Shown here piece by piece: positions 6,983-41,120 of a stretch of DNA of 64,000 bases. The notes beneath the pieces are model-generated. The model was not told the DNA's origin. It did no database searches and worked only from the letters and a program-made list of their open reading frames with translations. This DNA comes from an uncultured Chloroflexia bacterium (GTDB lineage: Bacteria; Chloroflexota; Limnocylindria; Limnocylindrales; CSP1-4). The stretch lies in the NCBI GenBank assembly GCA_963779905.1, contig CAWAAF010000010.1, forward strand, positions 343,423 through 407,422. Direction: 5' to 3'. Every line of letters begins with the position of its first letter. Position 1 is the first letter of the stretch. Both the position numbers and the translations under genes were made by a program.

Positions 6983-10709
<3,727 letters not shown>

Positions 10710-16575: not shown

Positions 16576-18300
16576 CACGGCTGCTCAGCGCCGGCCTCGT
16601 CCTCGCCATCCTCGTCGGCAGCGGCTGCTCTGCCGCCACGCGCCCGGCCGCCAGCGGGGCGGCAGCCACTTGCCCGCGCGACGGAGACTCTCAAGATGAG
16701 CGGACCAGATGAGCTCACGCGCCTTGGGCCGACCGATCCCAATGAACAGGTCTACTTCACGGTGTCGCTGGTTATGCCGGCTGGCAACGACGTCGATAAC
16801 TACCTGGCCGCGCTATACGACCCGCAGTCGCCCGACTACCGGCACTTCCTGAACGCCCAGGCCTTTGGCGCACGCTTTGGCCTGCCGCTGGCGGACATCG
16901 ATTCCGTCGTCAGCTGGCTCAATGCCAACCACGTCCAGACCACCTTCAGGCCCGCCCAACGGACTTCGCTCGAAGTCAGCGCCCGGGCCGGCGACGTCAA
17001 TCGACTTTTCTCGGTCACGCTCGAAGACTTCATGACCAAGGACGGCGTGCGCTTCCACCGGCCCAACTGGCCAGCCCACCCTGCCGGCCGACATGACCGG
17101 CCGCGTGGCGGCCGTCGTTGGCCTGGACACGGAGCCGGTCGTGCTGAAGTCATTCCCGGGCATGTTTGCCTCGGGCGTGCCCAACGGCGGCATGAAGCCC
17201 GAACGACGTGGCGCGCGCCTATGAGATCGAGCAACTTCGTGCGGCGGGCCTCAACGGTGAGGGCCAAACCGTCGGCATCGTCTCGTTCGACACCTTCTAC
17301 CAGAGCGACATCGACGATTGGGACCAGGCCATGGGCATCACCGGCCCGAAGGTCGAATCGGTCAAGCTGCCGGGCGCACCAGACGAGCCGGCGGGCGGCA
17401 ACGACGAGGTCACGCTCGACATCCAGGTCATCAGGGGCATTGCCCCGGCCGCCCAGATCATCAATTACGAGGCCGCCAACAAGCTGTCCAACTTCGCCGC
17501 GATGATCTCCAAGATCGTCGATGACGGGCGTGTCGACCTGGTCAACGTCAGCTGGGGCAAGTGCGAGAAGTACTGGCCATCCGACGCGTTCAATGGCATG
17601 AACAAGGAGCTGCAGGCAGCCTTCGCCGCCGGCATCAGCATCTTTGTCGCCTCGGGTGACGACGGCGCCTATGGCTGCCGGCGCAACCGCATCTCGGACG
17701 ACCCGTTCGACCGTGACCTCAGCCCCAACGTCGACTTCCCGTCGGCCAGCACCAGCGTCATCTCCGTCGGTGGCACGTACCTGACCGTCCGCACCGACGG
17801 CACCTACTACAGCGAGGCCGGCTGGGAAGATCCGCTCGGTGGCGGCGGTGGTGGCGGCGGACTCTCGCAGCGCGTTGAACGGCCGGCGTGGCAGACCGGC
17901 TTGGGCGTCGAGAACAGCGAATCGAACGGCATGCGCCAGGTGCCGGACGTGGCCGGTCCGGCCGATCCAGCCAGCGGCTTCATCGTCATCTACACGCCAC
18001 CGGATGAGAAGCAGCAGTCAGGCGGCGTGGGCGGTACGAGCGCCGCGGCCCCCTTCTGGGTCGGCTCGATGGCGCTGGTCCGGCAGCTGGCTGGCTACGC
18101 ACGGCATCAATACGCTGGGCGCCCTGGGCCCGACCCTTTACCAGGTGGCAGCGTCGCGCCCGGACGTCTTCCACGACGTGGTTCGCGGCGGCAACCTGCT
18201 GCAGAGGCGCGAGCCGGGCTGGGATTTCTCGACCGGCCTTGGCACGCCGCGTGTCGCGCCGCTGGCCGACGCGCTGATTACCGCGCTCGGCGGTCAGTAG
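16572..18300 (+). CDS. S53 family serine peptidase (sedolisin/kumamolisin-like) with lipoprotein signal and pro-domain; about 4 frameshifts
   Basis: 'MTRLLSAGLVLAILVGSGCSA' (lipobox). Pro-kumamolisin activation-domain-like segment ('VYFTVSLVMPAGNDVDNYLAALYDPQSPDYRHFL'). Catalytic domain with 'SGDDGAY' and 'GGTSAAAPFWVGSMAL' (S53 Ser motif). The C-terminal end lies in a third frame ('GALGPTLYQVAASRPDVFHDVVRGGNLL...'). Confidence 0.75.
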
Positions 18301-19487
18301 TCAGCCGCGCGGCGGCGGCTCGCGGCCGGCGCTGAGCAGGAGCGCGGCCAGCAGGGTCGTGCGCGGCACGAGCGAGTCGAGCTCGAGGTACTCGTCTTCG
18401 GAGTGATCGCCGCCACCGATGGGGCCCAGGCCGTCGACGCGTCGGCACGCCCAGGCCGGCCGTGGTGTTGGCGTCCGACGCACCGCCCGTCGCGGCGTCC
18501 TTCAGATCGAAGCCGAGGCGACCGGCCAGCGACACGGCCGCGTCGACCAGGGCAGCCGTACCGGCCGACTTCTCCATCGGCCAGGCCTTGGCGCTCTGCT
18601 CGACCGTGCACGTCACGTCGGCGAACCGTCGTGGTGGCGCAATCCGCCGCACCTCCGCCTCCGCCTCGTCGAGGGCGGCGCGAGTGACTGCCCGCAGATC
18701 GACTTCGAGGCGTGCCTCGGCCGGCACGACATTGGGCCGCGTGCCACCGCTGATCACGCCGACGTTGACCGTCACGCCCGGCCAGCGGCCGTTGAGCGCG
18801 CTCAGCGCGAGTGCCTTGTGGGCCGCCTCGACGATGGCGTTGCGGCCCTTCTCCGGCTCGACGCCGGCATGCGCCGCGCGGCCGGTCATCACCAGCGTCA
18901 GATCGGCAATGCCCTTGCGCGAGCTGACGATGTCGCCGTTGGCGCGGGCCAGTTCCAGGACGAACGCAAAGTCGCTCGACTCGGCATGCGGCGCGATCAC
19001 CGGCTTGCTGGCCGGCGAGCCGATCTCCTCGTCCGGATTGGCGATGAAGACCAGCCGACCAAAAGGCAGGCCGCCAGCGACCGACTGAACGGCGGCGACG
19101 GCATGCAGACCGGCCAGCAGGCCCGCCTTCATGTCGGCCACGCCGGGGCCGTACGCCCGCGTGCCACGCTCCGTGTACGGGCGGCAGGGCGACCGTGCCA
19201 TCGGGGTAGACCGTGTCCATGTGGCCGACCAGCAGCGCGTTGGGACCGCCCCTGCCGGCGAAGGTGCCCACGACCGTGTCGCCCAACTCCGCGTTGGCTT
19301 CCAACTCGACCGTCGCGCCGAGAGCGCGGAAGCGATCGGCGACGATCCGGCCGACCTCGTCGACGCCGGCCTTGCTGTAGCTGCCGCAGTCGATCGCGAC
19401 CAGCCGGCGCAGGTCGGTGAAGAAGTCGGGCTGTGAGCGCTCGACCGCCGCGCGCAGAGCGCGCAGCTCGTCGTCGGTGACCGGCAT
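18301..19487 (-). CDS. M20 family metallopeptidase (ArgE/DapE/ACY1/CPG2-type), 2 frameshifts
   Basis: 'LLVGHMDTVYPDGT', 'GVADMKAGLLAGLHAV', 'FIANPDEEIGSPAS', 'NVGVISGGTRPNVVPAEA', and C-terminal 'GLGPIGGGDHSEDEYLELDSLVPRTTLLAALL'. Start abuts the MarR stop. Confidence 0.75.
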
Positions 19488-19981
19488 CAGTTGGCGGTGG
19501 CGGGCGATTGCCGGCGGGCGCGGCGGAAGCGTTCCTCCAGGCGCTGGGTCAGCGCCAGGTAGTCGGCCTTTTCGTCGTCCGTCAGACAGCCGAACAGCTC
19601 GCCGATGGCGGCGCGGTGAGCGGCCATCAGTTCGACCGGATCCGGTGCTTCGTCGGTCAGTTCGATCAGCGTGGCGCGACGATCCGTCGGATGCGCGACG
19701 CGGCGGACCATCCCCTCCTCTTCCAGGCCGTCGACAAGGGCGGTGATGTTGCGCGGCGTGACGCCGAGCGCATCGGCCAGGTCGCTCATCTTCTGGGCGC
19801 CCTCGCAGTGCAGTGACTCGAGCAGGCGCAGGCGTGACGTGCTCGGGCCGCCGGCCGGCGCCTGCGTGCGCAGCCAGCGTATGTATTCGCCGATCAGCGA
19901 CTCGAAAGACGCTGCCAGTTGGTCGGCCGGCGAGATCTCGATGGCGGGCTGGTTGGGGGCTGCGCTAGGTGTTGTATCCAT
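19487..19981 (-). CDS. MarR family transcriptional regulator
   Basis: 'LLESLHCEGAQKMSDLADALGVTPRNITALVDGLEEEGMVRRVAHPTDRRATLIELT' winged HTH. Intact. Confidence 0.85.
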   Translation of the reverse strand: MDTTPSAAPNQPAIEISPADQLAASFESLIGEYIRWLRTQAPAGGPSTSRLRLLESLHCEGAQKMSDLADALGVTPRNITALVDGLEEEGMVRRVAHPTDRRATLIELTDEAPDPVELMAAHRAAIGELFGCLTDDEKADYLALTQRLEERFRRARRQSPATAN

Positions 19982-20040: not shown

Positions 20041-20990
20041 ATGCGCGCATTCGCAATTGACGAGTTCGGCAAGCCAGGAGAGGTCAAGGAGCTGCCCGCA
20101 GCCGACACCCGGCGAAGGCGAGGTCGTAATTCGCGTCGCAGCCGCCAGCGTCAACCCCATGGACGCGGTGGTTGCCGCGGGTGGTGCTCAGCAATGGGCG
20201 CAGCACCGCTTTCCGCTGGTGCCGGGTCTGGACGCCGCCGGCAGTCGTGACCGCTGTCGGCCCCGGCGTGACCGGCATCAGCGTGGGTGACGAGGTCATG
20301 GCCAGCGCGTCGGACAAGCCCTACTACGGCGGCGGCACTTTCGCCGAGCTCGTGGCTGTACCGGTCCAGGCTGTCGCCAAGAAGCCCGTCAGCATCGACA
20401 TCAAGGCGGCTTCGACGCTGCCGTTGGCCGGCCTGACCGCGCTCGCCGCGATCGAAGCCATCGAGCCCCAGTCGGGCCAGACGATCGCCGTGATCGGTGC
20501 GACCGGCGCAGTCGGCAGCTTCTTCGTCCAGTTCGCCGCCAAGCGTGGCGCCACGGTAGTCGCGCTGGCCCGGCCCGGCGAACTCCGACTATGCCCGCCA
20601 ACTGGGGGCTGCCGAGGTGATCGACCACACCGCCGATCCGGTCGCCCAGATCCACAAAGCCCATCCAGACGGCATCGACGCGATCGCTGACTTCACCGGC
20701 AACCTGACGCTCGTCGCCGCGACATCGGTGCTGCTCAAGCAGGGTGGCCTGATCGCCTCCTCGGCGGCGCTACGGGCTCGATGTTGCGCTGTTCGCGCCG
20801 CGCGGCATCGAAGTTCGGCGGGTCAACGCACTGCCCAACAGCCGGCTGTCGGATCTGGCTCGGCTGATCGATGGCGAAGGCATCCTTCCGCCACACATCC
20901 AGGAGCGCATCGCTCAACGACGCAGCCGCCGCCCTCACCGCCGTCGGCCAGCGCCACAACCGGGGCAAGGTCGTTCTGACCATCGGCTAA
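20041..20990 (+). pseudogene. MDR-superfamily NADPH:quinone oxidoreductase / zinc-binding alcohol dehydrogenase-like, with 5 or more frame changes in about 950 bp
   Basis: Fragments across all three + frames: 'MRAFAIDEFGKPGEVKELP', 'GEGEVVIRVAAASVNPMD', 'GVTGISVGDEVMASASDKPYYGGGTFAELVAVP', 'GQTIAVIGATGAVGSFFVQFAAKRGATVVALA', 'GIDAIADFTGNL', '...RHNRGKVVLTIG*'. Confidence 0.6.
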
Positions 20991-21031: not shown

Positions 21032-22738
21032 GTGCGCCTGATCGAAGTCCGCCTGCTCGATGGCCCGAACATCTACCGGCTCGAACCGGCCGTGCGCATC
21101 GAGATCGCGCTCGGCCGGCGCCGGTCGTGGTACGGCGAGCGCTCGCCCGGCCGGCTACGCCGTCGTCCGGCTTGGCGCCGCCGTGCCGCGGGCGAGGTCC
21201 CGTCCGCCCATCGCTGCCGTCGCCGACTGGGTGCGGCACCTTCATACGGCCGCGCTCGGCGAGCGCGGGGTACGGCCGCGCGTCCACCGCACGAGCGAGC
21301 CCGGCCACTGGGTCGTCTCGTTTCCGTGGCACGAGCACGGTCGCGCCGAGGCCATCGCCAACTGCGCATTTCGGCTGGCCGAACGCACGTGCCGACCCGC
21401 GCTCGCGAGCGCGCCGCCGTCACAGCTTGATCCGCCAGATCCGCGACGCCAACACGCGCCCGCCGTCGTGGATCACGGACGACGGATCGGCGCGTGCCGG
21501 CCATCTCGATCAGCGGCACCAACGGCAAGAGCACGACCACGCGCATGATCGCCAACATCCTGCGCACGGCGGGCAGGCACGTCGGCGTGACCACCTCCGA
21601 TGGCGTGATCGTCGACGACGAGCTGGTCGAGGAAGGCGACCTGACCGGGCCGCTGGGTGCGCAGAGCGTGCTGCGCAATCCGGACGTCGATGTGGCCGTG
21701 CTTGAGACGGCGCGCGGCGGCATCCTGCTGCGCGGCCTGGGCTACCAGTCCAACGACGCCTCCGTGCTGACCAACGTCAGCCCCGACCACCTCGACCTGC
21801 AGGGCCTGCACACGCTGCCCGAGCTGGCCGAGGTCAAGTCGGTCATCGCCCGCGTAACCAAGCCCGAGGGCGTGGTCGTCCTGAATGCCGACGATGCGCT
21901 GGTGGCGGCCGTCGGCCGGCAGGTCAAGGCGGCGGTCTGCTTCTTCTCGCTGAAGCCGGCCAGCGCGCGCATTCGGCGCCACCTGGCCGCCGGCGGGCGG
22001 GCGATGGTCGTTGAGGATGGCTGGATCGTGGAGGCCGTCGGCTCGCGGCGAAACAGGATCGTCGCCGTTGGCCGACGTGCCGGCGACGATGGGCGGCGCC
22101 GCGCGTCACAACGTGGCCAACGCGCTGGCGGCGGCCGGCGGCGCGATGGCACTCGGCGCGACGCCGCGAGCAGGTGGCCGCCGGCCTGCGCTCTTTCCGG
22201 CCGACATCGGCTCAGATGCCCGGGCGGCTCAACTTCTACCGCCTGGGTAACCGCGTCGTGCTGGTCGACTTCGCCCACAACGAGGCCGGCCTGCGGGTCG
22301 TTCTCGACACGGTCGATGCACTCATCGGCAAGCGCGGAGCACCGGCAGGCGACGCTGAGCACGATCGTGGGCACCGCCGGTGACCGGCCCGACGACGGGC
22401 TGCGTGCCGTTGGCCGGCTGGCCGGCGCGCGCAGCGACCAGGTCGCGATCAAGGAGACGCTGCACTACCTGCGCGGCCGATCGCGCCAGAGCGTCATCGG
22501 CGAGCTGAGCGCCGGCCTGCGCGAGAGCGGCGTTCGGCTGGCCGATGTGCCCATCTACGGCGACGAGCCGTCGTGCGCTGCGCGCGCGAGCTGACCACAG
22601 CCGGCCGGCTGGCGGCGCGGCGGACGGTGCCCACTGGCTGCTGCTGATGTGCCACGAGGACCGGCCCGGCGTGTTGCCGAACTCGAAGCACAGGGCGCAC
22701 GGCCGGTGACGGACGTCGCGGAAATCGTCACGAAATCT
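21032..22738 (+). CDS. cyanophycin-synthetase-like protein made of a CphA-type N-domain fused directly to a Mur-ligase (M) domain, with no ATP-grasp (G) domain; 5 or more frameshifts
   Basis: N-terminus 'MRLIEVRLLDGPNIYRLEPAVRIEIAL' and 'VADWVRHLHTAALGERGVRPRVHRTSEPGHWVVSFPWHEHGRAEAIANCAFRLAE' parallel the CphA N-domain of the neighbouring cphA. After about 30 aa comes 'DDGSARAPAISISGTNGKSTTTRMIANIL...VLETARGGILLRGLGY...VLNADDALVAAVG...DVPATMGGAARHNVANALAAAGGAMALG...GRLNFYRLGNRVVLVDFAHNEAG...IVGTAGDRPDD...'. That is the full Mur-ligase/CphA M-domain. Only about 70 nt separate the N-domain from the GTNGK P-loop. Confidence 0.6.
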
Positions 22739-23280
22739 CACGCGTAAAGGCGGCGCGGCGATAGCGATTGAGCGACGGCCACGCCTAGCGTGCCAGCCGT
22801 GGCGGAACTACGGGTCGGTCTTATCTGGCTGGCAGCCGGCGTCGTCGGCATGGCAAGCCTGCTGTGGTGGCGCTCTACGGACTGGCCGTTGGCCTGATGG
22901 CGATGCTGGCAGCGAGCGCGCCAATGCTGGCGGGGACGAGTCTTGCGGTCGCAGCTGACCGGCATCTGTCAGGGCTGTTTGCGGTTTCGGCTGCCTTTGG
23001 CTGTTCCTGGCCACCGGTCAGTTCATGGCTGGCGTGAACCCTGGGTCCGTTCGTCGGCGGCTACATCGGGCCTATTCGCGGTAGGTGGATCGGTCGTCAT
23101 CCTCGGCGCAGCGCTGGGGGCGTGGCGCATTACCCGTCCCGTCCGCTGCGACGTCCGTTCTGTTCGGACTGAGCGTGGAGCCCGCATCATCTGAGGTTGA
23201 CGTGCCCGCGCGGTGGTGGAGCGGCGCTCCAACGACGGACGATCACGTCCGAAATCGTCATATGAACGCAGGGGTATAAC

Positions 23281-24219
23281 CGTGGCCAAGGCACAGACAA
23301 CAAAGGACAAGGCAAAGGCGGCCGCTGAGGCCGGCGCCGAAGACATGGTGGCCGGTGCCGGCCTGATCGATGAAGCCGGCGGCGCCGCGCGCAAGACGGT
23401 CGGGCTGGCCGCGCAGGGCGCTGCGGACGTCACTCGCGGCGAGGACCAGCTGCGCGCCGCTGACGCCTACGGCACGCTCAGCGACGTCGCTGCCGTGAAG
23501 GGCCTGGTCGATACGGCCGAGGGCGCGGAAGTCCTCGAGGCTGCCGAGGAGGCGGCCGCCGTCAGCACGCTGATGGCCGCCGTCAGCGCGGAGAACATCG
23601 ACCGTGGCATGGTCCTCGCCTCGCTGTCCGGCCAGATCAGGGTGGCCAGCGACGTGGTCGACCTGATGGGCATGCCCGTCCTGGCCGAGTTCCTGGGCGT
23701 CAAGGGCCGGCAGCTGCGCGGGCTCGCCGTCAACGAGATCGGTCGGGCGATGGCCTCGGCTGCCCTGTCCGAGGGCATGGAAGCGATGAGCGACCGGCTG
23801 GCCGCGCTGGGCATGACCGAGGTCGCCGAGGGACTGCAGCGAGCTCGACACATCCGACGCACTGCTCGATGCCCGCGATGACGCCGCCGACGCCGGCATG
23901 CGCAACGCCGCCGCCGGCGTCGCCGAGCTGTCCGCCGCGCAGGCCGAGGCGGAGTGCGACCCGACAGCTGGCCGGTGCGGGCGTGGTGATGGTCGCCCAG
24001 GGCTCCGAAGAGATCGGGGCCGCCGAGGGCCTGGAGGCCGCCGAAGCAGCGAAGCCGAAGCGCTCGACGCGCAAGCCTGCCGCGGCAAGGCAAGTGCCAC
24101 GCCGCAAGGCAAGGCCAGCGCAAGCAAGGCCGCCGGCAGTCGAAGTCGCCAGCAAAGCGCAGACCGGCAAGCGCGCAGAGCGGCAAGGGCAGGGCGGCCA
24201 AGACGTCGTAAGGTCGTAG
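23281..24219 (+). CDS. alanine-rich, predicted all-helical hypothetical protein with Lys/Arg/Pro-rich basic C-terminal tail (2 frameshifts)
   Basis: GTG start 'MAKAQTTKDKAKAAAEAGAEDMVAGAG...'. Repetitive amphipathic Ala/Glu/Val-rich segments. The tail is 'KPKRSTRKPAAARQVPRRKARPAQARPP...KAQTGKRAERQGQGGQ'. No recognisable enzymatic motif. Confidence 0.35.
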
Positions 24220-24234
24220 CCGAGGGCACAGCTG

Positions 24235-25955
24235 ATGGGCGCCGCGCCGCAGCGCCAACCGCCACTCGCCGCTGAGCGGCGTCCTGCCGATCCTCGATTG
24301 GCTGCCGCGCTACGACCGATCCTGGCTGCGCAGCGACATCATCGCCGGCATCGCCGTGACGGCGATGATCGTGCCCAAGAACCTCGGCTACGCCGAAATC
24401 GCCGGCGTGCCCGTCCAGAACGGGCTGTACGCGGCAGCGGCCGGCGCACTGATCTACGCGCTGTTCTGCACGTCGCGTCACATCTCGACCGGGCCGAGCT
24501 CGTCGCTGGCCGCGGTGGCCGGCGGCGCCGTGCTGGTCACCGGCCTTGCCGGCGCGGATGCCGCGCAGCTCGTAGCCGCAATAACGCTCGTCACTGGCGC
24601 GCTGTTCGTGCTGATGGCCGTCCTGCGGCTGGGCTGGATCTCGCGCTTCCTCTCGCGGGCGGTGGTCACCGGCTTCCTGGCCGGGGCGGCAATCGATGTG
24701 GTCATTGGTGAACTACCCAAGCTGACCGGAACGTCCGCCGACGGGAGCAACGCGTTCACCGAGGCGGCCTCTTGGTTCGCCGGACTGAACGAGACGCACG
24801 TGGCGACGCTCGTTGTCGGGCTCGTCGCGCTGGCCGCGATCCTGGCGCTGCGGTTTCGCGGCGCCACGCGTGCCGGGCGCTCTGGTGCTGGTCGTCGGCG
24901 GTCTGGTCGCGTCACGCTTGTTCGATCTCGGCGCAGGCGGCGTCGCGTTGGTCGGCCCGGTGCCGAGCGGCCTGCCGCTGCCTCAGGTGCCCTCGCTCGA
25001 GCTGACGCTGCGCCATCTGCCGGAGGTATCGATCGCGGCTTTCGCGCTGCTGCTGATCGGCTTCTCGCAGACTGCCGGCGACGCGCGGACGTTCGCGACC
25101 CGCCATCGCTACCGCATCGACGTCAACCAGGAGGCGACCGCCCAAGGGATGGCCAACCTCGGCGCCGGCTTCTTCCAGGGCATGCCCGTATCGACCAGCC
25201 TGTCGGCGAGCTCGCTCAACGAGTCGGCCGGCGCGCGGTCGCCGCTGGCGTCGATCACGACCGGCCTGCTGGTCGTTGCCACGCTGATTTTCCTGGCGCC
25301 ACTCTTCGCCGATCTGCCGAAGGCGGTGCTGGCGGCGATCATCATCGACGCCGTCGTCTTCGGCATGATCGACGTGCGTGAGTTGCGCCGGTTGGCGCGC
25401 GTGAAGCCGGCCGACTTCGCCATTGCCATCGTCGCCGTACTGGGCGTGCTGAGCGTCGGTGTCCTGTTCGGCGTAGTCATCGGCATCGGCCTATCGCTGA
25501 TCTGGCTGATCGCGGTGGTGACACGCCCGAGCATGCCGGTCCTGGGCAAACAGGAAGGCACGCAAGTGTTCCGCGACCTCGAATCCCACCCAGAGGACGA
25601 GACCTTTCCCGGCATCGTCGTGCTGCGCATGGACGGCGGCCTGTTCTTCGCCACCGCCGAAGCGCTCGACGAACGAATTCGCGGCCTGGCCGCAGGACGA
25701 CCCGTCGATTCAGACGCTCGTGCTCGACCTCGAAGGAGTCGACCTGATCGATTCCCAAGGCGCGGCCAAGGTGACCGAGATCGAGGAGCTCGCCCGTAGC
25801 CGAGGCGTAAGCCTGCGCCTGGCGCGGGTCAAACCCGGCGTCACGAGGAGTGCTCGAGGCCGAGGGCGTGATCGCGCAGCGTGGGCAGCGACCACGTCCA
25901 CGGCAACATCTTCCGCGCGGTTGACGCAGCGCTCGCGGAACGGGTCGCCGACTAG
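24235..25955 (+). CDS. SulP family anion (sulfate/bicarbonate) transporter with C-terminal STAS domain; 4 or more frameshifts
   Basis: 'LPILDWLPRYDRSWLRSDIIAGIAVTAMIVPKNLGYAEIAGVPVQNGLYAAAAGALIYALF...GPSSSLAAV', later 'FFQGMPVSTSLSASSLNESAGARSPLASI', then STAS 'GIVVLRMDGGLFFATAEAL...LDLEGVDLIDSQGAAKVTEIEEL'. The stop codon shares a CTAG with the cphA stop. Confidence 0.75.
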
Positions 25956-28726
25956 CCCTCTTCGGCCTCCAGCTCGCCGGGGTCGGCGATGGCCACGCCG
26001 CCGCGCGCCTTTCGGGCGCCGATCGCTTCGCGGTAGACACGCTGCCGCGTCGTCGACGCACATAACGACCAGGTCGCCGGGTTTGGCCATGGCGAGCGCC
26101 ATCCGTGCCGCGCCCAGCTCGTCGAGGACCGCCTCGGCCTTCGCGGTGCGCGCGCCTTCGCGCTGGCCCTTCTCTGACGCCGTTCAGCACGTTGGCCGCC
26201 GACTCGCCCGCCGGCCGGCCACGCAGGTTGGCGTCCTCGCGCACGAGGATGGTGTCGAACGCCTGGGCCGCCAGCCGGCCGTACTCGCGCTGGTCTTCGT
26301 CGCGCCGGTCGCCGGGAATACCGATGACGCCGATCGTCCGGCCGTCTGCCATCGCCGGCATATGCCTCAACGAACTCGGCCAGCCGGCGCATGCCGTCGA
26401 CGTTGTGGCAGTAGTCGAGGATGAGCTTGAAGCCGTTGAGCTCGACCTCGTTCAGCCGGCCGGGCGCCTGGAAGAAGGACGTCGTGAAGGTGCGCAGGCC
26501 CTGGCGGATGTCGTGCAGGTGGGCGCCCGCCGCCCAGGCAGCGGCGGCCGCGGCGAGCGCGTTGGCCACGTTCATGCGTGCCCGTCCCCCGAACGTGGCC
26601 GGGATGAGGTGCGTGTAGAGCAGCGGCAGGGTGCGCGTGGCGTGGCGCAGCACCATCAGCTCGCCCTCGTCCGTCTGCTGCAGGACCAGTGCCGCTCCGC
26701 CGCGTCCGCAGTGGCCATCGACGCGGTCGTAGCCCTCCTCGCCGGCCTTGGTCTGCATCGAGAAGTAGACGACGTGGCCGCGGCTCTGGCGGGCCATCTT
26801 GGCGACCAGCGGGTCGTCGGCGTTGAGGACGGCCGTGCCTGCAGCGCGGCACCGCATCGACCAGTACGGACTTGACGGCGGCCAGCTGGCTCGACCGTGT
26901 CGATGCCGTGCAGGCCAAGGTGGTCGCCGGTGACGTTGGTCACGACGGCGATGTCGTTGCGGTCGTAGCCCAGGCCCTCGCGCAGGATGCCGCCGCGGGC
27001 GACCTCGAACACGCACGTGTCGACCGACGGGTTCTGCAGCACCATCCGCGCCGAGCGCGGCCCGCTCATGTCGCCCTTCCGGATCAGCCGGCCGTCGACG
27101 ACGATGCCGTCCGTCGTGGTCATGCCCACGCGCTTACCCATCAGCTTGAGGATGTGACCGATCATCCGGACGGTCGTCGTCTTGCCGTTCGTGCCGGTCA
27201 CCGCCACGATCGGAATGCGCGCGTTGGAGCCCTGTGGAAAGAGCATGTCCAGGACGGGCTTGGCGACGTATTGCGGCTCGCCTTCGGTCGGGTTGGTGTG
27301 CATGCGGAAGCCGGGTGCGGCGTTGACCTCGACGATCGCGCCGCCCTTCTCGCGGACAGGCGTGGCGATGTCGGGCGTGATGAAGTCGATGCCGGCGACG
27401 TCCAGGCCGACGACGCGCGCCGCCGTCTCTGCGATCTCGACGTTGTCCGGGTGCGCCTCGTGCGGTGCGGTCGATGGCCGTGCCGCCGGTCGACATGTTG
27501 CCGGTCAGTGCCAGCTGGACGCGCGTGCCCTTGGGCGGGACGTCGTCCGGCCCGAAGCCCTGCTTGGCGGCCAGCTCGAGGGCGATGTCGTTCAGCGCGA
27601 TGCGCGTCAAGCACCTTCTCGTGGCCGATGCCACGGCGCGGGTCGGCGTTCTCGATGTCGACCAGCTGGCGCAGCGTGTGGTCACCGTCGGCGTTGACGC
27701 CGGCCGGCACGCGCTGGGCGACGGCGGCCATCTTGCCGTCGACGACCAGCACGCGGTAGTCGTTGCCGTGGACGTAGGTCTCGACGACCAGGTCGCCGTT
27801 GCGGCTCTGAGCGCGGGCGAGCGGCACGGCGCGCCGGACGTCGTCGTCTGTGCGCAGGTCGAGGTTGACGCCGCGACCGTGGTTGCCATCGAGCGGCTTG
27901 ACCACGACCGGGAAGCCGAGCGTCTTGGCGGCGGCGACCGCCTCGTCTTCGCTGCGCACGCGTCTGCGAGCGCGGGACGGGCAGGCCGGCCGAGTTCAGC
28001 AGGTTGTTGGTCAGGCTCTTGTCGGACGCGATGTCGACTGCCAGCGCCGGCGTCTGCGAGGTCATCGTCGCCCGGATCCGGCGCTGGTGGATGCCCTGGC
28101 CGAGCTGGACAAGGCTGAAGCGGTCGAGTCGGATGAAGGGAATGTCGCGCGACAGGGCCTCGTCGATGAGGGCCTGCGTCGACGGCCCGAAGGCCTGCTT
28201 TTCGGCCAGCTTGATGAGGTCTTCGAGGGCACCGATGAAGTCGAGGTCGCCGGCTTCCGGCGCCACGAGGTGGTTGACCAGGGCGACCGCCAGCCGGCCG
28301 GCTTCCAGGCCGACCTGCTCCTCGCGGTACTCGTAGATGACGTTGTACTGGCCGGTCTTGCCCGCGCTGCGCGTCTTGCCGATGTGAACCTCGGTGCCGG
28401 CCAGGTCCTGCAGTTCGATGGCGATGTGCTCCGCGACGTGGCCCATCCACGTGCCTTCCTCGAGCCGCGTCACGAAGCCGCCGCGCCGGCCGAGCGAGCA
28501 GGCGTGATCTTCCAGGCCGGGCAGCAGCGCCAGCAGCGCGCGGTTGAAGTCCGGGAATGGTGTTCGACGGGAACTGCTCGAGCACGCCAAGGTCGACGAG
28601 CATGCGGATGACCGGCGTGCGCGACCAGAGGTTTGGCCCGCGCAGGACGCGCGTCTCGAGGATGCGCAGCGTGGGCTGCGGCGTGCCGCTGGCCGTCGCC
28701 TCGGCTGCCGGCGGCGCCTGTGTCAT
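25952..28726 (-). CDS. cphA: cyanophycin synthetase CphA (N-domain + ATP-grasp + Mur-ligase-like domain), at least 6 single-nt frameshifts
   Basis: Segments across three frames. N-terminus: 'MTQAPPAAEATASGTPQPTLRILETRVLRGPNLWSRTPVIRMLVDLGVLEQFPSNTIPGL'. N-domain: 'ALLPGLEDHACSLGRRGGFVTRLEEGTWMGHVAEHIAIELQDLAGTEVHIGKTR...YNVIYEY'. ATP-grasp: 'FPVVVKPLDGNHGRGVNLD...YVHGNDYRVLVVDGKMAAVAQRVPAGVNADGDHTLRQLVDIENADPRRGIGHEKVLD'. M-domain: 'IPIVAVTGTNGKTTTVRMIGHIL...FEVARGGILREGLGY...VLNADDPLVAKMA...NVANALAAAAAAWAAGA...APGRLNEVELNGFKLILDYCHN...TIGVIGIPGDRRDEDQ...'. Topology matches Synechocystis CphA, recalled from memory. Confidence 0.85.
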
Positions 28727-28740
28727 GTGAGTGGCTGGCC

Positions 28741-29575
28741 CTAGCTCGAGGCTTTGGCGATGTCGAGTGCGCGCAGGACCGGAGCGGCCACACGCTCGCG
28801 CCGGTCGAGGTCGAAGCGATAGCCCGACGGCAGCGAGTGCAGGATCACGTTGCTGATCATCAGTGGCTTGTGGGCACCGACTTCCCAGGCGTCGGTGTCG
28901 GATTGCGCGCCATCGATGACGGTGATGCTGCGCTTGCCGATGACTTCCATCACCCGGTCGGGCCCGACCACGCCGGCAGTGTCCTCGTCCACGCCGATGC
29001 CGAGCAGCGACGGGTTCTGGGCGATGATCGCCAGCAGCCGGCCGAGCCGGTTCCGCTGCTCGAAATGCTGGTCGATGATGACGCCGGGCAGGATGCCGAG
29101 CCCGGCCGCCATCTGGAACATGCGCTGCTTGGGCGTCGCGCCCGATGCGCCAAAGGCGACCATGTGCGTGCTCATGGCCGACGCGCCAGCGCTGGTGCCG
29201 GCGACGACGGCGCCCTCTTGCATGGCGCTGGACGACGGCCTGCGCCAGGGCTGTCCCGCCGAGGGTCGACGACAGGCGAAGCTGGTTGCCGCCGGTCATG
29301 AAGATGCCGGTTGCCTGTCGCACGAGTTGCGCGTGTTGCTTGTCGTTGGCCTGTGGCCTGGTCATGGCGTGAATGGGCATGACTTCGCGCGCACCGAGCT
29401 CACCAAAGATGCGGCGGTACATCTCGCCGGCCAGCGGGCCGAGCGAAGAAGCGGTGCTGATGACCGCGATTCGGGCATCCGGACCGCCGGCCAGTGCGAC
29501 GAATCGGTTCAGGATGACCTTCTCGCGCACCTTATCCTCGGCGCCGCCGATGATGATTACGTGGCCTTCGCTCAT
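28741..29575 (-). CDS. cphB: cyanophycinase CphB (peptidase S51), one frameshift near 29240
   Basis: 'MSEGHVIIIGGAEDKVREKVILNRFVALAGGPDARIAVISTAS...IFMTGGNQLRL' then, in a second frame, '...GAVVAGTSAGASAMS...IIDQHFEQRNRLGRLLAII' (GxSAGA active-site Ser). The TAG stop lies 15 nt upstream of the cphA ATG. Confidence 0.8.
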
Positions 29576-30509: not shown

Positions 30510-31155
30510 GCCAGAACCGCCAACACGCGGCGGTTGTCCTGCGCCGCCGGCTCGAGACCGAGCTTGCCGAAGATTGCGCTGACGTGTCCTTCGACCGTCT
30601 TGGGGTCGAGCACCAGCTGGTCGGCGATGGCCTGGTTGGAGCGACCCTCCGCCATCAGGCCAAGAATCTCGCGCTCGCGCGGGGTCAGCTCATCGAGAGG
30701 CGAATGGGCTCGCGGGCGGCCCAGCAGGCGTGACACCACCTCTGGGTCAATGACCGACCCACCCGCCGCGACCCGCCTGACTGCATCGGCGAGATCGGCG
30801 ACCTTGGTCACGCGATCCTTCAACAGGTAACCGATGCCCGCCGGATCGTCGCGAAGGAGCTCGAGCGCATAGCGCGTCTCGACGTACTGCGATAGCACCA
30901 GGATGGCCGTACCCGGGTAGCGCAGACGAATCTGACGCGCCGCCTCGAGGCCCTCGGTGGTGTGAGTTGGCGGCATGCGCACGTCGACGATCGCGACGTC
31001 CGGCCGCTCGCGATCGATAAGCGTCAACAGCCCATCCGCATCGGCCGCCTGGCCAACCACGCTGAAGCCGGCGGCCGTCAGGGCGGAGGCGAGGGCCTCG
31101 CGCAACAGGATCGCGTCGTCGGCGATGGCAATGCGGATCGGCGTGGCGTTCAACG
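30494..31155 (-). CDS. NarL/LuxR family response regulator (REC + HTH_LuxR)
   Basis: 'IRIAIADDAILLREALASALTAAGFSVVGQAADADGLLTLIDRERPDVAIVDVRMPP...' and 'LTPREREILGLMAEGRSNQAIADQLVLDPKTVEGHVSAIFGKLG'. Intact. Non-ATG start likely. Confidence 0.85.
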
Positions 31156-31298
31156 GGTGGATCGTCGCACGAGCGGACCTGCGCCAGCAGCGGGTTTTCC
31201 CTTGCTTTTGCCCACCCGGGTTCCCGGGCCGGCTCGGCTGTCCGGGCGGCCAGCCAATCGAAGACTTACCTCCACCGACCAAACAGGAGGTAACCGAC

Positions 31299-31511
31299 AT
31301 GACCAGCTACCAGCAGACCCTGCCGCACTCCTCTCCCCTTCGGCTGGCGCCGATCGATCGCCGCTCGCTCTCGCGCGGACTGACCGTCACGCTTGCCGCC
31401 CTGATCGCCATGATCGTGCTCGCCGTCTCGATCGAGTTGACCATGGGTTACACGTCGTCCACTCCACCCGGCACGCCAGCGCCGCAGCCCGCGGCGGGCC
31501 TGGGCCTGTAA
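31299..31511 (+). CDS. small (70 aa) single-TM membrane protein of unknown function
   Basis: Shine-Dalgarno 'caggagg' 7 nt upstream of ATG. 'MTSYQQTLPHSSPLRLAPIDRRSLSRGLTVTLAALIAMIVLAVSIELTMGYT...'. Divergent from the response regulator. Confidence 0.5.
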   Translation: MTSYQQTLPHSSPLRLAPIDRRSLSRGLTVTLAALIAMIVLAVSIELTMGYTSSTPPGTPAPQPAAGLGL

Positions 31512-31534
31512 CAGCGGGTAACTCGACCTGTACG

Positions 31535-33524
31535 ATGCTGAGCAGCCAGATGACCGCGACGAGTGACGCGATCACGGTGGACGCACCGGACGCTGAAGAG
31601 GGAAGCCAGCGGGCGCCAGCCACGTTCGCCTGGCTGACGCTGCTCCTGGCGGCGTGGATCACGCTCGGCCTGCTGCTGGTCGCGACGGTCTACGCCAACC
31701 GCACGATCACCGACACCGTCGTCTCGATCTACCACGTCCCCTACTACCTGGGCGTGCTGGCGCTCGTCGGGCTGTGCCTGCTGCTGATCGTCCGGGCAAG
31801 GCGTGCCGGGCATGACTGGCGTGCCGCCTTCCCGCCGGGCTACCTCGGCCTGCCAGTCGGGGCCGTTCTGCTTGTGATCTGGCCCGTCGTCGAAATCGGC
31901 TGGCGCCAGGGCATCGGCATCTACCCCGACAGCATCGAGCAGGTCTTTGCGCCGAGCCGGCTGCTTGCCTTCGCCGGCGTCCTGCTGGTCGCCAGCGCGC
32001 CGCTCTATGCGGCGCTCAAGGCCGCCCCGACGCGCGCGGGCTGGCCGCCGGTGCTTTCGGCCACCCTCGTTCTGTCGGTGCTTGGCTTGATCGGTTTCGA
32101 ACCGGCCCAGAACGCGTGGCTGGAGGCGCCACTCAACAACGCCATCAGCCGTTCGGAAATCTGGGTGATGGATGCTGACGGCTCGCACCAGACCCAACTC
32201 ATTTCGCTCAAGGCCTTCGACCTTGGCAACGCGGTCTGGTCGCCCGATGGCACGCGCATTGCCTACACCATGGCGGCCACGCCCAAGCGTATCGGCGAGC
32301 TCGCGCCGAACGTCGCGATCTGGACGGCTAACGCGGACGGCTCGAACCAGCACGAGCTGATTGCCGGTGTTGGCTGGTACTGGCTGCCTCACTGGTCGTC
32401 CGATGGTGCGTGGATCCTGTTCACCCTCGATGGCCAGCATGGACCTGGATCGGGCGCGGGCATCCTGCCGCCTGCCGTTGGCTTTGGCCAGGGACCAGCC
32501 GCCGGCCAACCGCCGACGGTGACACCCAACGTCGACGTCTGGCGGATGCGCTCCGATGGCACCGGCGACGTCGAGCGCGTTACGACCGATCCGGCCGAGG
32601 ACCGCGCCGGCGTGTACTCGCCTGATGGCGCCAGCCTGCTCTTCGACAGCACGCGCGACGCGGGCCACACGGCGCTCTTCGTCGCACCAACCGGTTCCTC
32701 GGACGCGGTCCAGCTGACGACCATGGATGACGCGTGGGGTGGCTCATGGTCGCCCGACGGATCGCGCATCGCCTTCAATGGCGCGCCGTTCGGCAGTCGC
32801 CTCCGACATCTACGTGACCAACTTTCCAGTGAGCGGTCCGCCGCAACAACTGACCTTCGAATTCAGCAGCGACCGCGTTCCCAGCTGGTCGCCGGATGGC
32901 AGGCACATCGCCTTCGAAAGCGACCGCGAGAGCACCAGCGACATCTGGTCGATGGATGCCAGCGGCGCCAATCAGGTCAACCTGACCCGCACCGACGGCG
33001 CCGTCGAAGGACTGACCTCGGGCGGGCAGGCTTGGGGACCGGACGGCCGGATCCTCTACCAGCGCTCGCAGGACGAGCCGGCCGACGCCAGCACGCTCGT
33101 GCGCGAGAACCTGGGCGTGATGGGCACGCTGCTCGGGGCGCTGCTGCTCGCGTTCCTGGTGATGCTCGTGGTCAGCGTCGGCGCGCCGTTCGGCTCTGTC
33201 ACGGTGATCCTCGGCTTGTCGACGGCGGCAGCCGCGCTCGGCAGTGGAGAGTGGCGCTTCGTAGCCGCGGCGGTCATCGCCGGCCTCATCGTCGACGTGC
33301 TGATCCGGCTGGCCCCGGCGCAGCGCCGGTTGCTGGTCGGTACGGCCGCCGCCGCGGCGGCGTTCGTGCTCGCGGCGGGCGCGACCGTCCTGGCCACGAG
33401 CGTCATCGGTTGGTCGGTGACGTTGCTGCTGGGCGTGGCGATTGCCGGTGCCGCGCTGGGCGCGGGAATGGCCGCCTTGTTCGAGCAGACGCCGGCGACG
33501 GCGGATGGAGCCTCAGCCGATTGA
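31535..33524 (+). CDS. polytopic membrane protein with central periplasmic PD40/TolB-like WD40 beta-propeller domain (one frameshift near 32800)
   Basis: N-terminal about 5 TM helices. Repeated 'SPDG(T/A/S/R)xIA(F/Y)' PD40 signatures ('WSPDGTRIAYT','YSPDGASLLFDS','WSPDGSRIAFNG','WSPDGRHIAFESDR'). C-terminal 4-5 TM helices ('LGALLLAFLVMLVVSV...AAAVIAGLIVDVLI...AAFVLAAGATVLATSVIGWSVTLLLGVAIAG'). Confidence 0.6.
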
Positions 33525-35281
33525 GTAGCCGGACCGAGCGCGTCATCGCCCTGGCCGCGTTGGGCGCACTGCTGGCCGCGGTTCGCAACTTCGGGCCGTT
33601 GCTCTGGCCTTACGGCCTGGGCCAGAACTGGTCGCTGCCGACGCAGGTCTGGTTCTTCGTCGTCGACCTCTTGTGGGTGGCGGCGATGTGCGTGACCTAC
33701 TGGCGCTGGCCGTCGGGCCGCATGTGGAAGCTCTTCCTGGCTTACCAGGCGATCGCAACGCTGCTGGTTATCTGGATCTTCCCGACCTCGCTGACGTGGG
33801 CCGTCAGCCAGACCCTGATCGGACTTGGCAGCGTCGTGTTCGTCCACCTGGTGCTGGCATTCCCGACCGGTCGGCTCACCGATCGATACGACCGCCTGCT
33901 GGTAATCGGCGGGTACGCCTTCATTGCCGTCACCCGGGTGGCCTGGCTGGTGTACGTGGGACCCGCCCTTCCACAAGGACGCCTTCACGCCGTCCAACCC
34001 GTTCGAGCTGTTTCCGGATCCAACGCTGAACTTTGCCGTCGGTCAACTGGCCATCGTGCTGGCCACGCCGGTGTTTCTGGCGGCCGTCGTCATCGGCCTG
34101 TGGCGGCACTGGCAGCGCGCCACGCCGGCCATGCGCCGTGCTCTGCTGCCGATCATGCTCGCCGCGCCTATCCAGCTCGGCCTGATCGTGGCCTGGCACA
34201 TCGCCGACGCCAGCCCGACCGAAGCCAGCACGATCCGGGCGCTCCTGCAGCATCCGGTCGCCGGGCTCGCCGGCGTGATCTTCCCGCTCAGCTTCCTGGT
34301 CGGACTCTTGCGCGCCCGGCTGGCGCGCGGCGGAGTTGCCGACCTGGCCGTCGAGTTGGGCAAGGGCGTGCCGCTTGGGCGGCCTGCGCGACACGCTGGC
34401 CCGGGCGCTGCACGATCCGACCCTGGTGCTCGCCTTCCCGGCGCCATCGGGCGATGGCTACGTCGATTCGCAGGGCCGAACGATCGAGTTGGCCCAGGGC
34501 GACCCGTGAGCGCGGAACGGCGCGACTCGAGCGTGACGGCGAGACGTTGGCAATCCTGTCCTACGACGCGGCCATCGAGCGGGAGGACCCGGGCCGGGTT
34601 GATGCCGTGGCGTCAGTGGCGCGGATGGCCCTCGAGAACGAGCGTCTGGCAGCGCAGGTCAGGGCTCAGTTGGAGGAGGTCCGCGCTTCGCGGGCACGCA
34701 TCGTGGAAGCGGGCGACGCCGAGCGACGGCGCATCGAGCGTGATCTGCATGACGGCGCCCAGCAGCGGTTGGTCGTGCTGGCCATGCGGCTCGATCAGGC
34801 GCGCGACCAATCGGCTGAGGCATCGGCATTGATCGACGCGACGCGCGCCGAGCTCTTGGGCGTCGTTCGCGAGGTGCGGGATCTGGCGCGTGGCCTGCAT
34901 CCGCCGCTCCTGACTGAGGCCGGGCTGGCCGCTGCTGTCGAGGCGCTCGCCGAGCGCACGCCTTTCCCGGTCAAGGTCGACATCACTGAGCAGCGCTTCC
35001 CGGAAGAGGTCGAGGTGGCGGCTTACTTCGTGATTGCCGAAGGCCTGACCAACGTCGCCAAATATGCCGGCGCGAGCGAGGCGCTCGTCGAAGCGAAGGC
35101 AGCCGACGGCCGGCTGGTCGTGCGCGTCACGGACAACGGTCGCGGCGGCGCCGATCCAAACCAGGGCTCCGGCCTGCGCGGACTGGCGGATCGGGTGGCC
35201 GCGATCGGCGGGCAGCTCAAGGTGACGAGCCAGCGCGGTCGCGGCACGACGCTCATGGCCGAGCTGCCGACGGGCGCGTAG
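33525..35281 (+). CDS. sensor histidine kinase (polytopic N-terminal sensor domain, HisKA_3 dimerisation domain, HATPase_c), 3 or more frameshifts
   Basis: Multi-TM N-terminus. '[26 protein letters not shown]' (HisKA_3 H-box). '[21 protein letters not shown]...[50 protein letters not shown]'. Confidence 0.75.

Positions 35282-36448: not shown

Positions 36449-41120
<4,672 letters not shown>

Follow-up and report, generated by a model that had tools for sequence, protein, structure and literature searches.

Based on the corrected gene and its relatives, we propose that the window, a 64,000-nucleotide stretch of DNA from an uncultured Chloroflexia bacterium, encodes a real, catalytically competent ligase that would act in trans on the Asp beta-carboxyls of cyanophycin-type acceptors and is co-inherited with a convergent cphA-cphB pair. 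We put this reading at slightly better than even odds (about 0.55). The stand-alone N+M cyanophycin-synthetase-like ligase, meaning both the window gene and its relatives, is referred to here as NM. Its domain architecture, intact catalytic motifs, purifying selection, ancient split from CphA1 and conserved synteny are direct results of the analysis; its substrate and the direction of its physiological role are what we infer from them. The features concerned have the following window coordinates:

18304..19518, minus strand: M20 metallopeptidase (ArgE/DapE/CPG2-like; Pfam M20 plus M20_dimer)
19487..19981, minus strand: MarR-family regulator between M20 and NM (Pfam MarR, E 3.5e-14)
20172..20983, plus strand: zinc-ADH/quinone-oxidoreductase-like gene directly upstream of NM, frameshifted (Pfam ADH_N and NmrA fragments)
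21032..22747, plus strand: NM gene, ~569 aa after correction of about 10-11 single-base indels
21032..21450, plus strand: N-terminal domain of NM (aa 1 to ~140), treated here as homologous to the CphA N domain, but divergent
21488..22600, plus strand: Mur-ligase-type M domain of NM, Mcore plus Mlid (phmmer against PDB, family profile, motifs)
25955..28760, minus strand: cphA, encoding a CphA1 (N+G+M, Cx19HxxEH present; frameshift-aware alignment, domain-wise tblastn)
28744..29575, minus strand: cphB cyanophycinase (Peptidase_S51), directly upstream of cphA, with 1 one-base insertion

Reading frame and domain architecture

The gene starts with GTG at 21032 and stops with TAA at 22745-22747; the original prediction had the correct start but set the end slightly short, at 22738. 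A frameshift-aware alignment to an intact homologue (P0002, 569 aa) extends over the full length at 85% identity, requires 10 single-base frame corrections and contains no in-frame stops. Nucleotide alignment with two intact orthologues (L083 and L084) reveals 8 one-base insertions and 3 one-base deletions that are specific to the window, none of these 11 indels lying in a homopolymer run. Such a gene might be a decaying pseudogene, a cphA duplicate without the G domain that is gathering frameshifts, and the density of 10-11 frameshifts in 1.7 kb (5.8 indels per kb) is indeed the highest among the window genes tested, with a Poisson P of about 0.001 against the pooled rate of the others. However, dN/dS is 0.12-0.18, equal to the value between two intact orthologues, and short-read contigs carry intact versions from close relatives (81-84% identity). 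Moreover, every lesion is a one-base indel, and frame errors of the same kind are present in every neighbouring gene tested, including metH, lhr, cphA, cphB, M20 and S8. We therefore reject the pseudogene reading as extremely improbable, given the dN/dS values and the same kind of indel in the neighbours. Since no in-frame stops accompany them either, we read the frameshifts as sequencing or assembly errors, not gene decay.

After correction, NM begins with an N-terminal domain of ~140 aa, which a short linker joins to a complete Mur-ligase-type domain. Pfam returns Mur_ligase_M (E 1e-21) and a weak Mur_ligase_C, so that NM has both the central ATP-binding domain (PF08245) and the C-terminal domain (PF02875) by which the Mur ligase superfamily is recognized, and zero Pfam matches to ATP-grasp. 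Intact homologues are 560-600 aa long and cover 100% of the corrected gene, which leaves no space for a G domain. We also rejected the idea that a G domain is hidden in another frame: in tblastn, the G domain of an orthologous CphA1 matches only the real cphA (27241-28158) and never the NM interval in any frame. Thus, the initial description of a CphA-like paralogue, in which an N-like domain is joined directly to a complete M domain without ATP-grasp, is borne out by the corrected gene and by more than 100 intact homologues. The AlphaFold model (pLDDT 93.4, pTM 0.92) means, as far as the prediction goes, that N and M hold a defined mutual arrangement. Rosetta-stone fusions were sought among unusually long NM matches (P0238, P0184 and others), but no Pfam domain was found in any of them, and they are probably mis-called ORFs.

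Relationship to cyanophycin synthetases and Mur ligases

The M domain is clearly closest to that of CphA1. With phmmer against PDB, it matches residues 485-842 of SuCphA1 (7lg5) with an E-value of 2e-77, compared with about 1e-9 for MurE. The NM family profile reaches 4e-105 against CphA1 structures, whereas other Mur ligases range from about 1e-9 to 1e-24 in the same M-domain comparisons. In both PDB and NCBIfam, cyanophycin synthetases come out on top, with E-values more than 60 orders of magnitude better than that of the next Mur ligase. Sequence identity is about 39% (36-42%) to CphA1 M domains and about 23% to MurE. At the same time, NM falls below the cut-offs of both family models: it scores 385-397 bits with TIGR02068 (equivalog cut-off 850), the match being confined to model positions 474-836 or 474-854, and 96 bits with TIGR01085, the MurE model (cut-off 257).

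The M domain contains the P-loop GTNGKST together with ETARGG, DHLD, NADD, RHNVAN, PGRLN, D(F/Y)AHN, GDRPDD and LRGR motifs. When conservation was scored in 117 homologues, K165, E224, D251/H252, N284/D287, R397, D411/H414/N415 and G448/D449/R450 were 100% conserved; the P-loop, Mg-binding Glu, DH, NxxD, PGR, DxAHN and GDR are all kept in the corrected window gene. Judged from sequence, the invariant residues correspond to the ATP/Mg ligands of TeCphA1 (K499, T500, E558, R731 and H748; PMC9427784). In the same 117 homologues, seven positions at which CphA1 is invariant have a different residue, likewise fixed. The substitutions relative to CphA1 are S166 for T, L232/R233 for R/E, D254 for G, H358 for M/F and P451 for R, along with the loss of the conserved D474, and one residue is inserted before LRGR. 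The DHLD and HN motifs, which are ancestral for Mur ligases, are kept in NM but altered in CphA1, and the region where MurE has DNPR reads KExLxYLRGR.

The N domain is a more difficult case. Its sequence features are an RLxExRxLDGPNxY motif at the start, a conserved loop (GRRR(S/T)WYG) and a hairpin (HRTSEPGHW). The similarity to the CphA N domain that was originally read from the letters does not appear in ordinary HMM searches, an outcome that had been named in advance as telling against it. Pfam hmmscan of 31 NM N-termini at E<=10 gave 0 matches to PF18921, the CphA N domain, and hmmsearch of PDB sequences with the N-domain profile gave chance matches only (E>1). Among 1.84 billion protein representatives, the profile found 217 clusters, all of them NM-type or fragments; the best 150 of the 217 include nothing resembling a canonical CphA1 and no protein of 850-950 aa matched N-terminally. 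However, hhalign profile-profile comparison and two structure searches link the domain specifically to the CphA N domain: CphA2 and CphA1 are its best structural matches, and the listed matches include no Mur ligase. Because these more sensitive comparisons recover CphA N specifically, we treat the domain as a putative divergent, remote homologue of the CphA N domain and do not regard the proposed similarity as refuted. The domain does not have Cx19HxxEH, the primer-generating metallopeptidase motif present in 83% of CphA1s (PMC9262961); its helix has the sequence WVRRLH, in which one His is conserved and Cys is absent.

Compared with known systems, NM shares with CphA1 (TIGR02068; PDB 7LG5, 7WAC, 7LGM) all ATP/Mg/catalytic motifs of the M domain, the location beside cphB and, putatively, the N-domain fold. 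NM is also predicted to have the compact N-M unit that makes up the polymer-binding cleft at the Arg-adding site of CphA1. The differences are that the N domain of CphA1 is of the PF18921 type, usually with Cx19HxxEH, whereas that of NM lies below PF18921 detection, and that CphA1 extends the Asp backbone with its G domain; having no ATP-grasp G domain, NM should be unable to do so. CphA2 (PDB 7TA5, 8FXH), which polymerises beta-Asp-Arg dipeptides, is likewise a simplified CphA relative with one catalytic activity and an N domain without the peptidase motif. It is nonetheless the mirror image of NM: CphA2 combines N with an active G and a truncated, inactive M (PMC10273328), whereas NM combines N with a full-length, active-looking M whose motifs are intact, and has no G. 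MurE and other Mur ligases (MurC/D/F, FolC, MurT, PgsB/CapB) have the DHLD and HN motifs in common with NM. However, NM has neither the UDP-binding N-terminal domain nor the DNPR motif of MurE, and its context is cyanophycin metabolism rather than the dcw cell-wall cluster.

Neighbourhood and descent

NM was originally described as divergent from cphA, but the two genes, on the plus and minus strands respectively, are in fact convergent. The gap between them is 3.2 kb and is taken up by a SulP transporter and a stretch without assignment. The window cphA product is identical to the CphA1 of locus L001 at 710/949 positions, its gene having no stops and 10 one-base insertions. The same tail-to-tail arrangement with cphA-cphB is found in 23 of 25 informative loci from three phyla, the convergent cphA lying 41-6415 bp downstream of NM. 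The other two, L014 and L027 (Nakamurella), have no cphA within 10 kb, so the linkage is not obligatory. This synteny strongly supports the earlier suggestion that NM is a partner of the neighbouring synthetase with a function of its own, and the family-specific active-site substitutions support it as well. We also considered whether NM makes up for a broken M domain in CphA1 and rejected this, as the neighbouring CphA1s keep their M-domain motifs fully intact.

The M20 gene adjoins NM in 12 loci and is a conserved neighbour in Chloroflexota; it is absent beside NM in the Actinomycetota loci. M20 and NM are head-to-head in L001, the locus where orientation was checked, and another locus (L082) has the same M20-MarR-NM order as the window. 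Intact orthologues of the ADH-like gene (312-333 aa) are also found upstream of NM. The L001 orthologue of M20 has glutamate carboxypeptidase PRK06133 as its best NCBIfam match, at 292 bits against a cut-off of 349, and by sequence the enzyme is a candidate N-acyl-Arg or beta-Asp-Arg hydrolase. In Nocardioides alkalitolerans DSM 16699, a cultured carrier with NM at L010 10001-11632, the genes upstream of NM gave no informative Pfam match, with ORF choice there subject to high GC.

The intact relatives, ~570 aa in length, come from Chloroflexota (Limnocylindria), Actinomycetota (including cultured Nocardioides) and Methylomirabilota. In a crude NJ tree, 98/100 bootstraps recover the CphA1s as a clade that excludes NM, and 46/100 recover NM itself as monophyletic. 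The M domain of NM splits off outside the whole set of CphA1 M domains sampled, and the NM subtree mirrors that of CphA1. Judged by this position in the sequence tree, NM and the M half of CphA1 are ancient paralogues.

Possible roles in cyanophycin metabolism

In our preferred reading, NM would link an amino acid, through its alpha-amino group, to the Asp beta-carboxyl of a cyanophycin-type acceptor. Working in trans, it would modify chains of the cyanophycin or poly-Asp type that the M domain of CphA1 itself does not serve, with the divergent CphA-type N domain packing against the M domain. Since the N-M unit of CphA1 is the polymer-binding cleft of the Arg-adding site, N+M would be the minimal unit keeping that site, and since the M motifs of the neighbouring CphA1s are intact, NM would not be standing in for a dead domain. 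Its acceptor or amino-acid specificity probably differs from that of CphA1. As NM keeps only the side-chain-adding half of the synthetase, it probably carries out a separate, yet-undescribed step in the handling of the polymer.

A more speculative scheme, which we advance tentatively, joins NM with its M20 neighbour. M20 might strip Arg from Asp beta-carboxyls, either of beta-Asp-Arg dipeptides or of the polymer, and NM might re-load Arg or another amino acid on pre-formed poly-Asp without backbone synthesis, the two making up a cycle of cyanophycin side-chain remodelling. The Arg-rich GRRR(S/T)WYG loop would then help to bind an acidic, under-arginylated backbone. As part of the same scheme, NM may survive from an N-M ancestor that later received an ATP-grasp insertion and became CphA1, given that its M domain retains the DHLD and HN motifs ancestral for Mur ligases and falls outside all CphA1s in the tree.

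The acceptor might instead be a small molecule, with NM ligating an amino acid to free Asp or a short beta-aspartyl peptide; we regard this as rather unlikely. The products would be beta-Asp-Arg-type dipeptides, serving as CphA1 primers or as a separate solute, and M20 would run the reverse reaction. M20 hydrolases of the ArgE/DapE/CPG2-like type act on N-acyl amino acids, and beta-Asp-Arg is chemically one of these, in keeping with the presence of such a gene beside NM in a dozen loci, although not in Actinomycetota. CphA1 has very low activity in the first ligations, from Asp + Arg to beta-Asp-Arg (PMC9262961), so a dedicated primer-forming enzyme would be useful. The polymer-cleaving Cx19HxxEH site missing from NM is also in line with this idea, but the CphA1s of the window and L001 have that site, and a primer supplier thus seems redundant. 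In CphA1 the N domain binds polymer, and the retention of a CphA-type N domain in NM argues for a polymeric acceptor.

A non-catalytic or regulatory role, in which NM would use its N and M surfaces to assemble with CphA1 into hetero-oligomers and modulate polymerisation, appears distinctly unlikely. The N and M domains of CphA1 and CphA2 do contribute to oligomer interfaces and stability (PMC10273328; PMC9262961), and NM is tightly co-inherited with cphA. Nonetheless, complete conservation of the ATP/Mg/catalytic motifs in 117 sequences is unexpected in a scaffold, and the inactive M domain of CphA2 is, in contrast, truncated (PMC10273328). Even less probable is a MurE-like role as a peptidoglycan-type or some other Mur ligase, with no connection to cyanophycin beyond the location of its gene near cphA. 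Membership in the Mur ligase superfamily, the ancestral DHLD and HN motifs and the two loci without a nearby cphA are compatible with such an origin. However, the M-domain identities and the top database matches favor cyanophycin synthetases over MurE by a wide margin, the N domain is CphA-like rather than UDP-binding, and the synteny with cphA is kept across three phyla.

Cyanophycin metabolism as currently described comprises CphA1, CphA2, cyanophycinases and dipeptidases, the last being IadA, IaaA and the cyanophycin dipeptide hydrolases (PMC9974463). The literature searches brought up no relevant description of a CphA3 or of cyanophycin synthetase paralogues that are truncated, stand-alone or of N+M type, NM-type proteins are not mentioned in the 2023 bioinformatics survey or the CphZ paper, and no dedicated family model was found. 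An M-type ligase that stands alone and is conserved next to cphA-cphB in soil members of Chloroflexota and Actinomycetota would add a new enzymatic step, for which side-chain loading in trans, repair, capping and the incorporation of a different amino acid are candidates. NM thus bears on nitrogen storage and mobilisation in abundant soil bacteria and is a candidate biotechnology tool for modified cyanophycins and decorated poly-aspartate. Because N+M is the exact complement of the N+G of CphA2, it also offers a handle on the evolutionary assembly of the three-domain CphA1. NM proteins are at present annotated either generically as 'Mur ligase family protein' or wrongly as 'cyanophycin synthetase'; consequently, metagenomic counts of cphA based on M-domain similarity will run too high.

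Reading frame of the N+M gene

The gene for the stand-alone N+M ligase (hereafter NM) runs from a GTG start at 21032 to a TAA stop at 22745-22747 on the forward strand. No single long ORF spans the interval 21032-22747 (+); one continuous protein has to be pieced together from three forward frames. In a frameshift-aware alignment with P0002 (569 aa), which ranks second among the intact homologues in the database, residues 1-569 align at 85% identity with 10 single-base frame corrections and no in-frame stops. When its nucleotides are aligned with the intact orthologous genes L083 and L084, the window gene alone shows 11 one-base lesions (8 insertions, 3 deletions), none of them in a homopolymer run. 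Similar lesions, nearly all of them +1 insertions, are present in every gene of window region 6900-40900 that we compared with an intact orthologue (seven genes including NM). For the six genes other than NM, the reference was the syntenic orthologue on L001, an intact metagenome contig of 473 kb. No in-frame stop interrupts cphA, cphB, M20 or S8 in frameshift-aware alignment.

Genes compared with intact orthologues (coordinates, strand where assigned, lesions, indels per kb)
8322-10699, metH: 2 frame changes, 0.84
16645-18294 (+), S8 peptidase: 3 one-base insertions, 1.8
18304-19518 (-), M20 metallohydrolase: 3 one-base insertions, 2.5
21032-22747 (+), NM: 8 insertions and 3 deletions, 5.8
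25955-28760 (-), cphA: 10 one-base insertions, 3.6
28744-29575, cphB: 1 one-base insertion, 1.2
36531-39886, lhr: 2 frame changes, 0.6

Corrected NM has a dN/dS ratio of 0.18 with L083 and 0.12 with L084 (0.16 between these two), and relatives with 81-84% identity on short-read contigs have intact reading frames. Based on the lesions in all tested genes, the dN/dS of 0.12-0.18 and the intact relatives, we attribute the indels, on comparative grounds, to errors of assembly or sequencing. The pattern looks like that of a noisy long-read assembly, yet the indels are locally enriched over the cyanophycin genes; for NM, the Poisson P is ~0.001 when the other tested genes are pooled for comparison. 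A few kb from these indel-ridden genes, in contrast, an ORF of 1439 aa (30962-35281, +), in which PD40 repeats are combined with a histidine kinase (HisKA_3 + HATPase_c) at the C-terminus, is uninterrupted over 4.3 kb.

Domain architecture and descent

The gene first noted is confirmed, and the original prediction of an N-like domain joined directly to a full Mur-ligase M domain is supported. Pfam detected Mur_ligase_M (E 1e-21), a weak Mur_ligase_C and no other domain, so that ATP-grasp was absent as expected, but the expected PF18921 was not detected either. Searched against PDB sequences, NM aligns over its residues 151-517 with the Synechocystis CphA1 M domain (7lg5, residues 485-842) at E 2e-77, improving to 4e-105 with a profile of 117 NM family sequences; the best classical Mur ligases reach ~1e-9. 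The NCBIfam cyanophycin synthetase model TIGR02068 is matched at positions 474-836 alone (397 bits, cut-off 850), and NCBIfam has no model dedicated to the NM family. Nor is an ATP-grasp G domain hidden in other frames, since tblastn with an orthologous CphA1 G domain found the genuine cphA (27241-28158) alone. An AlphaFold model based on the family alignment has high confidence along its full length (pLDDT 93.4, pTM 0.92); in it, a beta-alpha N-terminal domain (1 to ~140) is connected by a short linker to a Mur-ligase core with lid.

The likeness of the N-terminal domain to that of CphA escaped ordinary HMM methods, whereas more sensitive methods support it, and do so specifically. PF18921 matched none of 31 NM-type N-termini even at E<=10, and an N-domain profile found no CphA among PDB sequences. 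Searched against 1.84 billion representative proteins, this profile collected 217 clusters, the best 150 of which included no canonical CphA1-like protein, with no protein of 850-950 aa matched N-terminally. However, hhalign of the NM N-domain alignment against 21 same-locus CphA1 N domains gave a probability of 90.5% (E 1.3e-6, 117 colinear columns), and in a Foldseek search of the whole PDB with an N-domain-only model (pLDDT 82) the top 12 matches were all structures of CphA1 or CphA2 (E 8e-4 to 5e-2), whereas the next match, an unrelated protein, had E 0.19. Both N domains carry an N-terminal R-x-L-x-G-P-N-x-[YW] strand-loop, and we assume its G-P-N-x-[YW] segment to be the hydrophobic loop of SuCphA1 (Y14, I17) that touches the M domain (PMC9262961). 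Invariant in the NM family are a GRRR(S/T)WYGxRxP loop and a HRTSEPGHW hairpin. The metallopeptidase motif Cx19HxxEH, responsible for primer generation in most CphA1s (PMC9262961), is present in window cphA and missing from the NM N domain. The profile search also located the NM-type motif mid-protein in P0238 (933 aa), P0184 (746 aa) and P0164 (610 aa), database proteins free of Pfam domains that are probably not true fusions but ORFs called wrongly across frameshifts in other noisy high-GC assemblies.

In a neighbour-joining tree of 60 M domains (MurE outgroup, 100 bootstraps), the CphA1 clade, cyanobacterial and proteobacterial members included, excludes NM in 98/100 replicates, while NM monophyly is weak (46/100). 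M-domain identity is 36-41% between NM and its own neighbouring CphA1 and 39-42% between NM and Synechocystis CphA1, compared with 47-51% between the neighbouring and the Synechocystis CphA1, and within NM the branches follow the same pattern as among the linked CphA1s. These sequence relationships point to NM as an ancient, co-inherited paralogue; the tree and the identities reject an origin as a recent truncated cphA duplicate.

Distribution and gene neighbourhood

Intact NM homologues, currently named 'Mur ligase family protein' or 'cyanophycin synthetase', come mostly from Chloroflexota (Candidatus Limnocylindria/Limnocylindrales). Those with 37-43% identity are found in Actinomycetota, Methylomirabilota and others. 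The actinomycetotal carriers are Nocardioides alkalitolerans DSM 16699, N. lijunqiniae, Marmoricola and Nakamurella, and cultured Nocardioides give experimental access to the family. Co-occurrence with full-length cphA was borne out: in 23/25 informative loci cphA and then cphB lie 41-6415 bp downstream of NM. Their arrangement is tail-to-tail, not divergent as had been proposed. In the window lineage and in close relatives' contigs the order is S8 - M20 - MarR - ADH - NM - (unknown) - SulP - cphA - cphB.

Further features of the neighbourhood
16645-18294 (+), sedolisin/kumamolisin-like serine peptidase (Pro-kuma_activ + Peptidase_S8), adjoining M20 here and in homologous loci L001 (7118-8773) and L082 (2558-4339); a homologue precedes M20 in L003
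18304-19518 (-), M20 metallohydrolase (L001 8763-9986), best NCBIfam match glutamate carboxypeptidase PRK06133, below cut-off
22750-25950, ~3.2 kb of additional DNA between NM and cphA
24356 to ~25800 (+), SulP-family sulfate permease (Sulfate_transp + STAS), frameshifted

NM-cphA spacing is 41-300 bp in most other loci. Within the window gap, the stretch ~22900-24300 has no Pfam match; a close relative carries a 323-aa unannotated gene and SulP in this position. Window CphA1 has a complete Cx19HxxEH (HACSLG...GHVAEH), so judging by its motif it should be primer-independent by the criteria of PMC9262961.

An M20 ArgE/DapE/CPG2-like hydrolase adjoins NM in 12 loci, one from an Actinomycetota MAG and the others from Chloroflexota and Methylomirabilota; in L001 the two genes lie head-to-head. 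Since the NM-cyanophycin cluster contains no IadA, IaaA or CphZ-type dipeptidase, M20 may be its beta-Asp-Arg (N-acyl-Arg) hydrolase.

Active site and possible function

The P-loop Lys, the Mg-binding Glu (ETARGG), DH of DHLD, NxxD, PGR, DxAHN and GDR are all 100% conserved in 117 NM members and correspond to ATP/Mg ligands mapped in TeCphA1 (PMC9427784). Other positions, 100% fixed in 19 neighbouring CphA1s, are fixed otherwise in NM.

Switched positions (NM, then CphA1)
S166: T
L232 / R233: R / E
D254: G
H358: M or F
P451: R
474, variable: D
extra aromatic residue before LRGR: absent

A protein made of N and M retains exactly the Arg-adding site of CphA1 and does without backbone extension. 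In the best-supported reading, plausible overall, NM would be a trans-acting ATP-dependent ligase joining an amino acid to an Asp beta-carboxyl left free in an acceptor of the cyanophycin or poly-Asp type, its acceptor or amino-acid specificity being altered relative to CphA1. Alternatively, the acceptor might be a small molecule; NM would then make beta-Asp dipeptides or primers, in a pair with the M20 hydrolase. The conserved motifs, the ranking of similarities, the synteny and the dN/dS speak against three further readings, in which NM is a regulatory partner, an unrelated Mur ligase or, given the broken frame, a pseudogene. NM does not stand in for a dead CphA1 M domain either, since the CphA1s next to it have lost none of their M-domain motifs.

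NM differs from known enzymes. CphA1 is rejected as an assignment by the missing G domain and the sub-cut-off score, and MurE by an identity of only 23% and the absence of a UDP-binding domain. Nor is NM a CphA2, which retains N and G with a truncated, inactive M domain (PMC10273328) and is thus its mirror image. We found no description of a stand-alone N+M architecture in the cyanophycin bioinformatics and structure literature searched, the coverage of which is incomplete, and an earlier description is possible. In a Pseudomonadales MAG (L031, 7685-13012), a further gene comes after cphB and cphA, and its product matches the M domain of NM/CphA with 34% identity over NM residues 137-547; it is possibly a cphA1'-type second synthetase gene as in Proteobacteria.
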